Source of the DNA: a virus
Lineage: Duplodnaviria; Caudoviricetes
DNA: 59,460 bases
IMG/VR virus record: IMGVR_UViG_3300033148_005420
Span: 1-59,460 of that record
Reading direction: 5' to 3' (one strand)
Positions 23,878-41,384 of this stretch are shown one piece after another. The notes below the pieces were generated by a model that saw nothing but the letters and a program-made list of their open reading frames with translations, made no database searches and was not told the origin of the DNA. Every line of letters begins with the position of its first letter. Positions within the stretch are counted from its first letter, which is position 1. Position numbers and translations under genes: made by a program.

Positions 23878-23899
23878 GCTGTCTGGGTTTTTCGGACGG

Positions 23900-25200
23900 T
23901 TAAATCAATTCATTTCGCTCGACAATCCATTCTTCCGGGATAATCTTTCTCGCTTCGATATATCGACAAATTGCATTATCAATGTCTTGCACTCTTTTTT
24001 TGTTATGAAGCCTTTGCGGAATTAAGCCGAGCGGCGGTTTTTCGATCGATTCACGGGCAAGTCCACCTGCCTTTGTTACTGAATCGAACTCATCAAGGGT
24101 AGGGACAAACTCGCTTCCCTGGAGCGCCTGATGTTCAGTATCTGTTACAGCGTTGCGAAAATTTGCGAACATGGATTCTTTGACATTTTCTCCAGAACTC
24201 ATTCTGCTTCTCCTTTTATACCCTTCGCGGGTAGTTTGTTTTTGTATCCAGCGGCAGGACGGAAATATTCCTCAAGCTTAGATAATAAGTCTCGCGCTTC
24301 TGCTTCCTCGAGCTTGTGCGTGTTTGTTACGTCTTCAAAGGTATAACCTCCATCAGTCGACCAATCGCTTTCGCCTGTGATGGAAATGCAAAACTTATCA
24401 TCATCTATACTTGTTGCTAGCTTCAATCTATCACCTCTTTGTACCCTTCGCGGGTAGTTTGTTTTCCAGTTTCCAGGCAGCCTCAGCCCAGCCCCATGCC
24501 CAGAGCTGAGCTGGAGGGATAGCTCGCCGTTTACAGTAAGCCATTTTCCAAAACCATTTGTTCATTTGCTTCTCCTTTTATATCCAACCTCGACCGGGTG
24601 TTTTCCAATCGAATATTATGAAAATTTGACCGCTTTAGGCTTGCCGCAAGTTGCACAGAAGGAGATGCTTATACCTGTGCTGTGCTCTCCGTCGCTACAG
24701 TCGTAGAACAGATCCGACCAGCCTGCATAAGCCGTCTCACTGTGGTCACACTTGACAATCTTCCGGCATTTGTCGCACCATTCCGAGTCTAATTTTCCGT
24801 GCTTTTCACACTTGTGCATTCTTGTCCTTTGGCTTCAGTTTTAATATTTGCTTCATCAGAGCAATCACCGCATGCTGATGCGGATGATTTAGAAAATCTA
24901 TCTCCTTTATATGGCTGAGGTGGTTTGTGATTTCGTAACGGTTTTCCACATCCTCCTTCCTCTTTTTGTACTTCTCGGACTCATCCTTGTGCTCCTCGTT
25001 TTCCAGGTAGCAACGGTCGTAAGGCTTGCCGCCAACCATGCTTCCGTTGCTCTTGCGGTACCTGTCGTTACCGATCAGGAACTGCGTCTCCGTGGTTCTG
25101 ATTACGGTCGCTGGTAGCCAGAATGTTTCAACTTTAAACGTGGTTACCCACAGTGACGACTTGACAAGCACGGTATCCCCTGCCTTTATATCTCGGAACA
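23900..25200 (-). other. Run of small hypothetical CDSs (23900-24202, 24199-24426, 24431-24565, 24616-24819, 24806-~25200)
   Basis: Packed minus-strand ORFs with RBSs; 24431-24565 (MNKWFWKMAY...) is below the track cutoff. Confidence 0.65.
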
Positions 25201-38263: not shown

Positions 38264-39043
38264 ATGCATGAATTAATCAAGGTGAAGGAAAGCAGTATTG
38301 GTGGTGAGCAGGTGAATTCTATTGATGCCCGACAGCTTCATGAGTTTTTGGGTAGCCGCAAAGACTTTTCAAATTGGGTAAAGGCCAAGGTTGTAAATAA
38401 TGTATTTTTCACGGAAGGTCAGGACTATATCTTGCTCACCCGATCGGGCGAGCAAACCGGCAGCGGTGGTCACAATAGAAAAGATTATGCGCTAACAATG
38501 GATACAGCTAAAAAAGTATCTATGGCCGAGCAGACCGAAGCCGGAAACAAGGCCCGTGATTATTTCCTTGAGTGTGAAAAAGTTGCCAAGGGCGGGCTGG
38601 CCCCTGCGGTCGGAAGTAAGAGGGAGGTGTTCGAGCTAGAACTGATTGGCTACGAGCACGCAGCGAGAATTCTCGACATTTCCCAAAACAGCCTGCTGGA
38701 CGGAGTTCATACCGTGTACGAAAACAACGGCGTTTCACCTGCTGCCCTGCCGCAATATACCGAAAAGGTTCGAGTGGTTTGTTCAGCGAAAGACCTGCTC
38801 AAAAAGAATAATTGCGGTGGAATGTCAACAATAGGGTTCAATAAGCTCTTAATCCGCATAGGATATCTTGAGACAAAGACCAGGTTAGGATCAAAAGACG
38901 TAATCAAGCCCTACAAGTCCATTACAGAAAAGGGTCTAAAATACGGGCAGAATGATGCTTTTAGAGGTTCATCTACCCAGACCCAGCCACATTGGTTTGA
39001 AGATACCTTTATGGAGCTTTACGCCCTCGCAACAGCGCAATAA
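38264..39043 (+). CDS. antA: AntA/AntB-family antirepressor with a KilAC-like C-terminus
   Basis: IDARQLHEFLGSRKDFSNWVK...F.EGQDY...GGHNRKDYALTMDTAKKVSM.E....G..ARDYFLECEK; C-terminal ITEKGLKYGQN. Confidence 0.9.
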   Translation: MHELIKVKESSIGGEQVNSIDARQLHEFLGSRKDFSNWVKAKVVNNVFFTEGQDYILLTRSGEQTGSGGHNRKDYALTMDTAKKVSMAEQTEAGNKARDYFLECEKVAKGGLAPAVGSKREVFELELIGYEHAARILDISQNSLLDGVHTVYENNGVSPAALPQYTEKVRVVCSAKDLLKKNNCGGMSTIGFNKLLIRIGYLETKTRLGSKDVIKPYKSITEKGLKYGQNDAFRGSSTQTQPHWFEDTFMELYALATAQ

Positions 39044-39097: not shown

Positions 39098-39601
39098 TCA
39101 CTCCCCACCATACCGTTTCCCATATTCCTTGTCCAGGATGAGCAACCCAGGCGGAACCTTCTCCCCTGCATGATCCATGGCTTGCCTAATCTCGTTAATA
39201 TCCTTCCAAAAATCAGCTTCAAGATCCATGAGGAACTTAGCGCAACCGTGCTCTCCGCCACCGGTCAGCTTCCCGACAGCCCCTTTAATAGCAACCAAAA
39301 CAGCGTTATCTTTCTTACTGATCATATCGAGTACCGCCCCGGCTGTCCATCCTTGCCCGGTTGCCGGAACGCTTTCAGTGGCTTGCAAAACAGGAATAAT
39401 GCCCCCGTGGTCGCAAATATGTTCGTAAATCTTACCAGCATACTCCCGGCGTTCCTTTGCCTCAACACAGGCCATAGCGGAAAGTCCAGGGGCATACTCT
39501 GACCGTAACCAGTAAGAGGCGGCTTGGCAATGCTTTGCGGCTCTGCTTAGCTCAGTGGCGACTATCAGTAACAGCCCGGCAGTTTGTTGATCCATGTTCA
39601 T
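39098..39601 (-). CDS. Ferritin-fold protein with a degenerate ferroxidase centre
   Basis: 167 aa; ASYW...PGL...EAKERREYAGKIYEHICDHGG and terminal GLLILDKEYGKR follow the FtnA pattern. Confidence 0.75.
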   Translation of the reverse strand: MNMDQQTAGLLLIVATELSRAAKHCQAASYWLRSEYAPGLSAMACVEAKERREYAGKIYEHICDHGGIIPVLQATESVPATGQGWTAGAVLDMISKKDNAVLVAIKGAVGKLTGGGEHGCAKFLMDLEADFWKDINEIRQAMDHAGEKVPPGLLILDKEYGKRYGGE

Positions 39602-39602
39602 G

Positions 39603-39824
39603 CTATTTCCCTTTCTTTTTTAGGCAAAATTCAATCACCTCGTCAATATTATCAACAAACCATTCGGCTGTAATTCCAGAGACAATCAGCTTGCATACCG
39701 AAACAATCCAAATTTTCAACATCCCGGACATTGTGCCTGAGTAATGCTTGTCTGCGGCTTTGTCTAAGATTTTTTTATATTTAGGAAGCAGTGAACACCA
39801 CACCTTGTTGGTCTGTTTTTTCAA
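39603..39824 (-). CDS. Small RHH-like DNA-binding protein
   Basis: KVWCSLLPKYKKILDKAADKHYSGTMSGMLKIWI; GGGGAG RBS before TTG. Confidence 0.5.
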   Translation of the reverse strand: MKKQTNKVWCSLLPKYKKILDKAADKHYSGTMSGMLKIWIVSVCKLIVSGITAEWFVDNIDEVIEFCLKKKGK

Positions 39825-39838
39825 AATCTCCCCTTAAA

Positions 39839-39876
39839 TAAACAGGGCCATTATGGTTATAGGCCCTGTTGTTTAC
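39839..39876 (-). terminator. Hairpin/possible terminator after the UGA-containing gene
   Basis: AACAGGGCC...GGCCCTGTT followed by TATTT on the minus strand. Confidence 0.55.
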
Positions 39877-39889
39877 AAATGGACTGCTT

Positions 39890-40972
39890 TTATCCTGGTT
39901 CAGTTGCTGGCTCTGGCACTGGATCAGTTTCCGGCACTGGATCAAGCTCAATTAAAGGTTCAACCAAAGGTTCTGGCTCTGGCTCCGGTTCTGGTTTCGA
40001 TTCAACTACCGGCTGAGGACATGGCCCCAAGGTATCGCCATGACCATAGTGGGTTTCAAGGGCATTAACGCTCACAGAGATGTCTTCGCCATTGTGGCAT
40101 AAGTCAACCTTTTTTGGCTCCTCTCCACTTCCATCATCTTCGCCGCCGATGATATCAATATCAATATTGATATCGTTATCATTGGTGTTATCGTTGTTAA
40201 GTTCGTTGTTCAGCTCCGTGTCCGCTGTATCATCATAACAACCACGGGTGCCGAATCCTGCATTACTGCTTTTGCCTACCGGTGGCACGGTGTCACCGCT
40301 CCCGGCGAGAACACCTTCAGGGGGGCTACCTGCCGCCCCCCGTCCCCCGCCGCCTCAGTGGTGGCCGTGGTGGCCGTTATCACGCAGATCATTGAGTAAT
40401 TCAAGGCGTTCGACCTTCCGCTCTGCCCGATCAAGGTCACGGGTAATAGCACGGCCCTCGGAAGCTTTAATCTCTGCCAAAACCTCTGCCTTGTCTTCAG
40501 CAGCCTGTAATTGCAACTTACAGCAGCACTTATCAGACTCTCGGGCGTTTGCGTTAATTTGCGCTACAAGAGCAGCATGTTGGTCAGCGCCTCGTAATTC
40601 TGATCGAAACTGGTTATCACTCGCACGGTTACCGGTTTCGTTGATATTATCACAGATTTTTCCGTGACCATCAACAACGAGATCAGCTATTCGTCCGGCA
40701 GAAATAGACCTCTGGATATTTTCAATCCCGGTGTTTCCAATTTCCCTATTGGCAAGGACATCAGCACGGATCACAGCAGGCCCGGCATAAGGAGCGAAAC
40801 CGCCATTGCCACCGCCTTCACCGCCACGACCAAGAAAGCTACCGTTTCCAGCACGTACAGTGTCAACCAGTTGAGCTAATCCAGATAAATCCATACTCAT
40901 ATCATTCCCTTTTGCTTTATTGTCACCTGTCATGTCGACAGGCGCTTCCTTTGCGGAATTTGCAGCGTTCAT
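39890..40972 (-). CDS. CCC/His-rich protein (205 aa to UGA) with an in-frame 154-codon extension; 360 aa if the UGA at codon 206 is decoded
   Basis: ORFs 40355-40972 and 39890-40288 share a frame and the 22 codons between them are open (GGGGRGAAGSPPEGVLAGSGDT). GAGGA RBS at 40972. The 205-aa part is well supported; the fusion is inferred. Confidence 0.6.
40320..40341 (-). promoter_or_regulatory. SECIS-like / readthrough hairpin
   Basis: mRNA GGGGGGC-GGCAGGUA-GCCCCCC starts 13 nt after the UGA at 40355-40357. Confidence 0.5.
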
Positions 40973-41126
40973 TTGTTCCTCTTTGTAAAATTTCCGTTAA
41001 TTCATACTAGAGGGACATAAAGAGAATTGCATCTAAATATCTGGAACTGCTGTATTAAAAGTTGCTAAACGTTGCTAGACAGCAACAAAAACAAAAGAGG
41101 CGTGAGGGTCTGGTATTATTTTTGCA

Positions 41127-41156
41127 TAAAAAAAGCCAACCCGAAGGCTGGCTTTT
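41127..41156. terminator. Intrinsic terminator ending the tail/lysis-region operon
   Basis: AAAAAAAGCCAACC-CGAA-GGCTGGCTTTT; U-tract present on the minus strand. Confidence 0.8.
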
Positions 41157-41171
41157 CAGAATCATGTAATG

Positions 41172-41384
41172 CTATTTTTTGCTCTTCGGGGGATCTTTTG
41201 AAGGGTCAATCACCTTGACACTGAGCTCCGGGAACCCTGTTACACAGCCTTGAGTTGCGCATAGAACCATAATACCTTCGGGGGTATCGACTATGAGCAT
41301 GTTGCTGTCTTGGCATTTAGGACATTTCCACGCCTGTACCGGTGGCTGATTGTTTTCACTTTTTTGGTCGGGGGTATCAGTCAT
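41172..41384 (-). CDS. Small Zn-ribbon protein
   Basis: CPKC...CATQGC; start taken at MTDTP. Confidence 0.55.
   Translation of the reverse strand: MTDTPDQKSENNQPPVQAWKCPKCQDSNMLIVDTPEGIMVLCATQGCVTGFPELSVKVIDPSKDPPKSKK

Follow-up and report, generated by a model that had tools for sequence, protein, structure and literature searches.

The stretch of DNA analysed here (the window) is a complete virus record of 59,460 base pairs (bp), IMGVR_UViG_3300033148_005420, from a tailed phage of the class Caudoviricetes; its termini carry direct repeats. On its minus strand a gene encoding a protein of 205 amino acids (aa), hereafter gene A, is followed by another open reading frame (ORF), ORF B. According to the original prediction A and B form one frame broken solely by a TGA, and this is exact in the sequence. 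Gene A ends with ...RDNGHHGHH before the TGA, after which the frame continues for 154 sense codons (GGGGRGAAGSPPEG...) until the TAA at 39892-39890. This extension contains no ATG: its in-frame starts are the GTG at codon 23 (GTG 40288), then a GTG at codon 94, a TTG at codon 109 and later ones. The 22 sense codons between the TGA and GTG 40288 include GGGGRG, which by eye resembles over a short length the GGRG closing the tail of P0004 (...HHGHHGGRG), the closest homologue of A. In ORF B an Asn/Asp-rich linker leads to a Cys/His module, which is followed by a Pro/Glu tail. The DKCCCK motif of A, the KVDLCH...HYGHGDTLGPC and (PE)n tail of B and the position of a GC hairpin just after the TGA are all as first described. 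The coordinates of these and neighbouring features are collected in Table 1.

Table 1. Features of the A-B locus in the window and of genes close to it or to related loci (nt, nucleotides).
Feature	Coordinates	Strand	Remarks
Gene A	40972-40355	minus	205 aa, ATG start, GAGG 5 nt upstream
In-frame TGA, proposed leaky stop	40357-40355	minus	context UGA-G; read from sequence
Stretch between stop and start	40354-40289	minus	22 sense codons (GGGGRGAAGSPPEGVLAGSGDT), from the TGA to GTG 40288
GC hairpin	40341-40320	minus	7-bp stem, GGGGGGC / GGCAGGTA / GCCCCCC; 8-nt loop GGCAGGUA; starts 13 nt after the TGA
ORF B as cut by gene callers (P0074)	40288-39890	minus	132 aa from GTG
B module	40120-40007	minus	EPKKVDLCHNGEDISVSVNALETHYGHGDTLGPCPQPV; predicted beta-hairpin and helix
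Terminator-like hairpin, upstream	41153-41128	minus	AGCCAGCC-TTCG-GGTTGGCT and T run; closes the upstream gene 41405-41172; by eye
Terminator-like hairpin, downstream	39868-39836	minus	CAGGGCC, 12-nt loop, GGCCCTG, TTTATTT; closes the A-B unit; by eye
Ferritin-like gene	39601-39098	minus	PF00210, expectation value (E) 2.7e-6; downstream of the A-B cassette
AntA/AntB-type anti-repressor gene	38264-39043	plus	PF08346, E 1.9e-19; just past the ferritin-like gene
Two-CxxC protein of relatives	L002 1430-1720; L003 2510-2842; L006 3913-4305; L008 3858-4127; L011 4277-4642		downstream of the cassette

Terminator-like hairpins on both sides suggest that A and B form a single small transcription unit. 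Weak terminator-type matches of Rfam overlap 41130-41174; a consensus terminator scan listed neither the upstream nor the downstream hairpin among its hits.

An exhaustive phmmer search places A in a family of 73 proteins at E of at most 1e-3 (A included), 29 of them at E of at most 1e-10, and most members are 170-220 aa long. The protein has a Gly-rich N-terminus, a CCC motif (C149-151) and a His-rich HHGHH tail; in an alignment of 43 members C151 is invariant, while C149, C150 and E125 are conserved in at least 90%. The family ends in short Cys/His/Gly tails, e.g. HHGHHGGRG, HGHHGG, CGCGCGGGVRPCPS and PCHPHHHPR. Comparison of these predicted C-termini shows the window TGA at the usual end of the family.

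In the AlphaFold prediction the N-terminus is disordered and residues 65-199 form one helix, with a predicted local distance difference test (pLDDT) score above 90 over residues 100-200. Modelled in three copies, residues 60-205 score 0.69, against 0.00 for the best of three controls; in calibration, 20 of 30 solved pairs and 1 of 23 single chains attained this score. The runs share at least 55% of their contacts, the pLDDT of the partner is at least 75, and the contacts are in register along residues 95-179, the CCC motif included. The model supports self-association of A, predicted to be a parallel coiled coil.

The B module (KKVDLCHNGEDISVSVNALETHYGHGDTLGPC) follows the pattern K-V-x-[ILM]-C-H...A-H-L-x-H-G-D-T-L-G-P-C. 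When it is aligned with those of the other loci (six modules), C8, H24, G28, D29, G32 and C34 are invariant. AlphaFold 2 gives a confident beta-hairpin and helix (mean pLDDT 91.2), for which a search of 48,161 PDB chains returned no good match (best Z 3.5, a ribosomal L9-like beta-beta-alpha). Among 371 candidates the module, often repeated, was found at E of at most 1e-3 in 34 proteins of 251-800 aa (P0077-P0110), in company with FecR domains in 10 of the 34 and with fn3, HYR or a prepilin N-terminus in others. In the 17 of these proteins that were read, most N-termini resemble signal peptides (by eye) and none has an A-like part. Since the longer proteins are mostly secreted-looking and without an A-like part, the module of B is, by sequence comparison, an unnamed one of extracellular type that is apparently widespread in secreted-looking bacterial proteins. 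Pfam and PHROGs gave only low-complexity matches below cut-off for B, and the ESM Atlas gave no usable match.

Taken by itself, the window lends no weight to a special status of the A-B junction. The TGA is, as already stated in the original prediction, an ordinary stop in this genome and even the commonest one (42 of 92 crude ORFs). Because the next gene is in the same frame, nine of these 92 ORFs run at least 60 sense codons beyond their stop (8 of 85 when ORFs are cut off at 60 aa); this weighs against taking the common frame of A and B as a sign of readthrough. For the hairpin, the 70 nt that follow the TGA have a fold energy of -33.1 kcal/mol, compared with -30.7 ± 3.1 for shuffled sequences (z -0.79; 42 of 200 shuffles fold as well), and the 101-nt context of the TGA has a fold z of -0.77. 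Within the window genome alone, neither the shared frame nor the hairpin exceeds chance, and the case therefore rests on the relatives.

Nine independent A loci with DNA, out of the 73 family database matches, were compared. B is present at seven of them and in frame at four, namely the window, L005 (same phage as L002 and L014), L003 and L011 (= L013). All four in-frame loci end A with TGA, yet three of the seven A-B loci are arranged otherwise. The first in-frame start of the extension is the GTG at codon 23 in the window, an ATG at codon 11 in L005, an ATG at codon 20 in L003 and a TTG at codon 84 of 180 in L011. In L006, A ends with TGA and B lies in the +1 frame with its own ATG 4 nt past the stop, and has a Cys-rich N-terminus and collagen repeats. 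In L008 (= L010), A ends with TAG, followed by a terminator-like hairpin and then by AGGAGG-ATG of a separate B. In L012, A also ends with TAG and B is in the -1 frame, open from GTG 2764 or ATG 2785 within the 3' end of A. The two remaining loci have no B: L007 ends A with TAA and has a terminator after A, and L001, from Shewanella phage 1/44, ends A with TGA. A further candidate, L004, was rejected as spurious, the metagenome match lying inside a GC-rich ORF of 366 aa without the family gene. In L015 the B module occurs, without A, in a protein that looks secreted.

These arrangements include those that the original prediction had named as contrary to its proposal: a TAA (L007) or a TAG (L008, L012) at the end of A, and a B that is out of frame (L006, L008, L012). 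On the tree of gene A the in-frame loci are scattered among the out-of-frame ones, L005 being sister to L012 (support 98/97); identities in A range from 23 to 56% among the loci, 31-47% being cited for the in-frame lineages. Given this interspersion and these identities, the in-frame TGA state would have been either long kept or repeatedly gained.

At two of the four in-frame loci TGA is not the usual stop of the neighbourhood. Near L003 only one ORF in eight ends with TGA, namely A itself, and TGA is in the minority around L011 (2 of 11 ORFs nearby, 14 of 104 in the whole record). In L011, 180 codons are open past the TGA in a genome of 32% GC, and they encode three B modules. The first ATG, GTG or TTG, at codon 84, is the Leu within HGDT-L-GPC of module 1. 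In the 73.8-kb record of this phage (G001), 18 of 104 ORFs extend at least 60 codons in frame past their stop; in 17 of the 18 the first start comes within 11 codons, gene A being the sole exception.

Past the L003 TGA, residues 4-48 are matched by residues 47-91 of the free-standing B of L008 (E 5e-22). For the 16 codons before the first ATG of L003 the proportions of non-synonymous (pN) and synonymous (pS) differences are 0.19 and 0.69, and for the 29 codons after it 0.23 and 0.84. As the two ratios are alike on both sides of the ATG, the codons ahead of it appear to be under purifying selection, with the same constraint at the protein level as those that follow. This comparison covers L003 and L008 only, the 22 codons of the window having no alignable relative. 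In L005 the conserved K-V of the first strand of the module precedes the only ATG.

All nine A genes start with ATG and have a clear Shine-Dalgarno (SD) sequence 5-9 nt upstream, while among the candidate starts of B a clear SD is seen only in L008. The downstream frame appears to be without an initiation signal of its own in L011, L003 and L005; the window has GTG with GGGAG. That a conserved downstream domain seems to lack its own start in three relatives speaks for use and not for noise. Directly 3' of the TGA, L005, L003 and L011 have an A; the window has a G, and L006 and L001 have a T. According to excerpts of PMC5373646, UGAA binds release factor 2 relatively weakly, and UGA is read through in Escherichia coli by near-cognate Trp and Cys transfer RNAs (tRNAs). 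The available text of PMC7918605 calls TGA leaky, with insertion of Trp, and gives 6% readthrough at one Bacillus subtilis TGA.

We favour, with moderate confidence, leaky or programmed readthrough of the UGA, by which the window phage would make A together with a minor A-B fusion. Most ribosomes would stop at the UGA and give the 205-aa coiled-coil protein. A minority would read it by means of a near-cognate host tRNA, presumably that for Trp or Cys, and continue in frame, appending a flexible Gly and Asn/Asp linker, the Cys/His module and the acidic Pro/Glu tail for a total of about 360 aa. If A is trimeric, a few assemblies would bear the additional domain at the same end as the clustered His tails. 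The GC hairpin would not be required: it may arise incidentally from Gly codons that pair with Pro codons, or act as a stimulator locally. Some independent initiation at GTG 40288 may also happen. The short and long forms of 205 and about 360 aa proposed originally are supported by the four phages with in-frame B, three of which apparently lack a usable start for the conserved part of B; the selenocysteine mechanism that went with them is not.

Several points weigh against readthrough. First, B is separate at three of the seven A-B loci (L006, L008 and L012), in two of which A ends with TAG. A covalent A-B fusion is therefore apparently not needed for function, and readthrough would not be the only route to B in the family, since B is out of frame at these three loci. 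Second, on frame alone four in-frame loci out of seven fall short of significance (by our own arithmetic, the binomial P is about 0.17 for a chance of 1/3), the sample of nine loci is narrow, and runs into an in-frame next gene occur by chance in 18 of 104 ORFs of G001 as they do in 8 of 85 in the window. Third, the context of the stop in the window is UGA-G and not UGA-A, and no conserved stimulatory structure was found after the TGA in folds of the window, L005, L003 and L011. Finally, other starts can be proposed: in the window GGGAG ends 10 nt before GTG 40288, which makes an own start for B possible; L005 and L003 may express an ATG-started, slightly truncated B; and in L011 an ATT preceded by GGAG (by eye) is an alternative start candidate.

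Readthrough has its main rival in an independent start at GTG 40288. A and B would then be two ordinary genes, A ending at its TGA and B starting at the GTG behind the SD GGGAG, and their shared frame would be incidental. We regard this as possible but rather doubtful. The gene callers cut B at this GTG, and the SD-like motif about 10 nt ahead of it, pointed out in the original prediction, was confirmed as GGGAG; ribosomes ending 66 nt upstream might perhaps aid initiation there. That the stop of A lies at the normal C-terminus of the family, that in-frame neighbours are common by chance and that B is separate in L006, L008 and L012 would all suit two genes. The relatives argue in the opposite direction: L011 has no start for 83 codons spanning the whole of a conserved module, the L003 codons ahead of the ATG appear to be under purifying selection, and the TGA at all four in-frame loci is left unexplained. 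In the window itself, the spacing of 10 nt between SD and GTG is long compared with the 5-9 nt of the nine A genes, and the extension has no ATG.

It is improbable that the junction is a broken gene or a base error, i.e. an ancestral A-B fusion (with TGG, for example) interrupted by a recent nonsense mutation or an assembly error. The idea draws on P0060, a continuous A-B protein of 353 aa whose junction residue is W; one transition turns TGG into TGA. But the same TGA junction occurs in four separately assembled lineages (32-47% identity), with B intact in all of them, and P0060 stems from a contig of 1,391 bp. The W of P0060 may stand for a genuine TGG, or a code-4 gene model may have rendered a TGA as W. 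The extension of P0060 resembles that of the window in composition alone (E 0.33).

As one candidate reading beside programmed readthrough, the original prediction offered the UGA as a selenocysteine (Sec) codon with the GC hairpin as a bacterial selenocysteine insertion sequence (SECIS), the long form possibly depending on host selenium. We consider this very unlikely. The window does have an in-frame UGA with an open frame downstream, as in selenoprotein genes; the hairpin loop starts 20 nt past the UGA, begins with G and contains GCAGGU, the flanks of the UGA are rich in Cys and His, and L005 reads C-P-S-UGA, which would be a CxxU-like spacing. The bSECISearch program reportedly accepts a loop 16-37 nt from the UGA. 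The hairpin is nevertheless specific to the window lineage. No hairpin is conserved after the TGA of L005, L003 and L011: the first two fold worse than their shuffles (z +2.05 and +0.95) and L011 has a different, weak hairpin (z -1.27). Rfam gave no SECIS among its nine matches at E of at most 10 in window 39500-41300 or among its six matches at E of at most 1 in L003, L005 and L011, a negative that is weak evidence as bacterial SECIS elements are diverse. No relative has a Cys at the junction, where the original prediction proposed to look for UGA or Cys in homologues; P0060, the only continuous A-B protein found, has W, and the tails of the A family stop at or close to this position with no conserved Cys aligned to it. 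No tRNA gene was found in the 59,460-bp window or in any of the four phage records searched (G000-G003), and no SelB domain in the window. The junction, moreover, lies in a variable tail and not in a conserved redox motif. If the Sec reading were true, A-B would be the first selenoprotein of a tailed phage and its long form would report the selenium status of the host.

The weakest alternative, that TGA is a sense codon throughout the phage or its host (table 4 or 25), has nothing in its favour beyond the single in-frame TGA, and the 42 of 92 ORFs ending in TGA, the lack of any suppressor tRNA found and the coding densities (in the window 0.900 with table 11 and 0.911 if TGA is read as sense, in G001 0.905 and 0.908) make it negligible: global recoding is excluded so far as composition shows.

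Neither Pfam nor PHROGs has a family for gene A, the ESM Atlas gave unnamed viral clusters only, and none of the 56 BFVD matches of the fold search reached E of 0.001. A tblastn search of INPHARED with A found Shewanella phage 1/44 and a marginal match (E 1e-3) in Salmonella phage HMD-P2; the same collection gave no match to B or to an A of the L011 type. Scans of viral contigs with P0001, P0060, P0004 and alignment A2 gave zero matches (alignment A1 was too diverse as a scan query), as did the plasmid collection, and two scans of genome contigs gave either no match or L009 alone (a 34-residue match). A word-based protein search with the fused 360-aa query and the B module (range 72-231 aa) returned only the proteins of the window. 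For B of the window, homology was found with B of L012 (E 3e-19) and of L011 (E 5e-12). Short likenesses between PEGVLA in the window and PEGILA in L012, and of PPVG with L003, were not detected by BLAST and are given no weight.

The member from Shewanella phage 1/44, gene S144_28 (KJ018213; L001 3779-4441), is the sole family A protein from a cultured phage; its annotation is hypothetical. Flanked by the capsid and portal genes, it is encoded on the opposite strand. After its TGA the frame stays open for 30 sense codons (acidic and Pro-rich) up to a second TGA, which a terminator follows; the annotated S144_27 is in a different frame.

For the out-of-frame B genes, no frameshift site was recognized by eye: there is no X XXY YYZ in the overlap of L012 and no prfB-like site in L006. 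In the separate B of L006 (3494-3862) the module is preceded by an N-terminus rich in Cys (MNCMRKCQPCIC) and by collagen-like G-X-Y triplets, about 18 in number (PF01391, E 2.9e-11), a composition that suggests a trimeric, fibre-like product.

Ferritin genes adjoin the cassette at three of the seven A-B loci. In the window the gene lies downstream of the cassette, and it lies directly upstream of A in L012 (1448-2008, E 2.4e-32) and L011 (2077-2628, E 8.2e-19). Together with the Cys/His tails this hints at a metal-related module. In L011, a 118-aa ORF (1696-2052, i.e. G001 23895-24251, minus strand) also ends with TGA in frame with the downstream ferritin gene; it looks like an ordinary abutting gene, because a start codon lies nine codons after the stop. 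Directly downstream of the cassette, five relatives encode a small protein that has two CxxC pairs and, at its C-terminus, the motif V(I/V)V(R/Q)SK(I/V)V. A CxxC protein precedes gene A in the window (41405-41172, minus strand; by eye). Between the upstream terminator and the SD of A, the AT-rich leader contains a tandem near-repeat (41060-41095, minus strand, ...gtctagcaacgtttagcaac...; by eye), which may be an operator or promoter element; a sigma-70 scan gave no promoter at these positions. The AntA/AntB-type anti-repressor gene suggests that the window phage is temperate.

One of the closest known layouts is that of the coat and A1 proteins of phage Q-beta, in which, as is proposed for the window, a leaky in-frame UGA gives a minor, C-terminally extended form and no phage tRNA is involved. 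There the terminal UGA of an abundant protein leaks, and by analogy the same may be proposed for A. Q-beta is where in-frame readthrough was first found, according to the available part of PMC8310308. It differs in being a single-stranded RNA phage with an extension essential to the capsid, whereas the window is a 59-kb double-stranded DNA phage with a predicted coiled-coil protein, and B is made as a separate protein in some of its relatives.

Among tailed phages, Ig-like domains are added by +1 or -1 frameshifting in T3 gene 10, Lactobacillus phage A2 and Listeria phages A118, A500 and PSA. These are likewise accessory domains of extracellular type carried by a fraction of the copies, and their frame varies between phages. 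The portions of PMC5009743 at hand describe Ig-like domains as landing in or out of frame by recombination, followed by in-frame decoding or frameshifting. The occurrence of B in the 0, +1 and -1 frames parallels this pattern, readthrough replacing frameshifting here. The two cases differ in that stop readthrough is proposed for A-B, that B is a 35-aa beta-hairpin and helix and not Ig-like, and that virion membership of A is not established.

A SECIS of the E. coli fdhF type shares with the window an in-frame UGA, a GC hairpin within 13 nt and a loop starting with G, but the window hairpin is not conserved and comes with no junction Cys, no Rfam SECIS and no Sec machinery in view. Unprogrammed leakage of UGA (E. 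coli nudL and pheL, Salmonella, B. subtilis) is alike in that near-cognate Trp and Cys tRNAs read UGA; extracts of PMC5373646 and PMC7918605 place it at the per-cent or sub-per-cent level and describe an effect of the base after the stop. It differs from the present case, where the downstream frame is conserved, apparently selected and without its own start in three relatives.

In the available parts of PMC8310308 and PMC5009743, DNA phages are cited for frameshifting and Q-beta for readthrough. We found no report in the open-access literature of a conserved UGA-readthrough junction in tailed phages, nor of a phage selenoprotein. The UGA junction of A and B is probably a readthrough layout shared with several distant tailed phages. 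As a speculation, the A-B protein could be a surface or metal-binding appendage, possibly tied to the neighbouring ferritin, given the extracellular type of the module, the His/Cys tails clustered at one end of the coiled coil and the adjoining ferritin gene.

For annotation, the consequence is that these loci are split by gene callers, and that no called gene contains the first module of L011. Both the A family and the B module are unnamed, and the ferritin neighbour hints at a metal-related role for them. If readthrough is true, the termination efficiency of the host would set the ratio of the coiled-coil protein to its domain-bearing form, and one and the same accessory module would be expressed through readthrough in certain phages and from a gene of its own in others.

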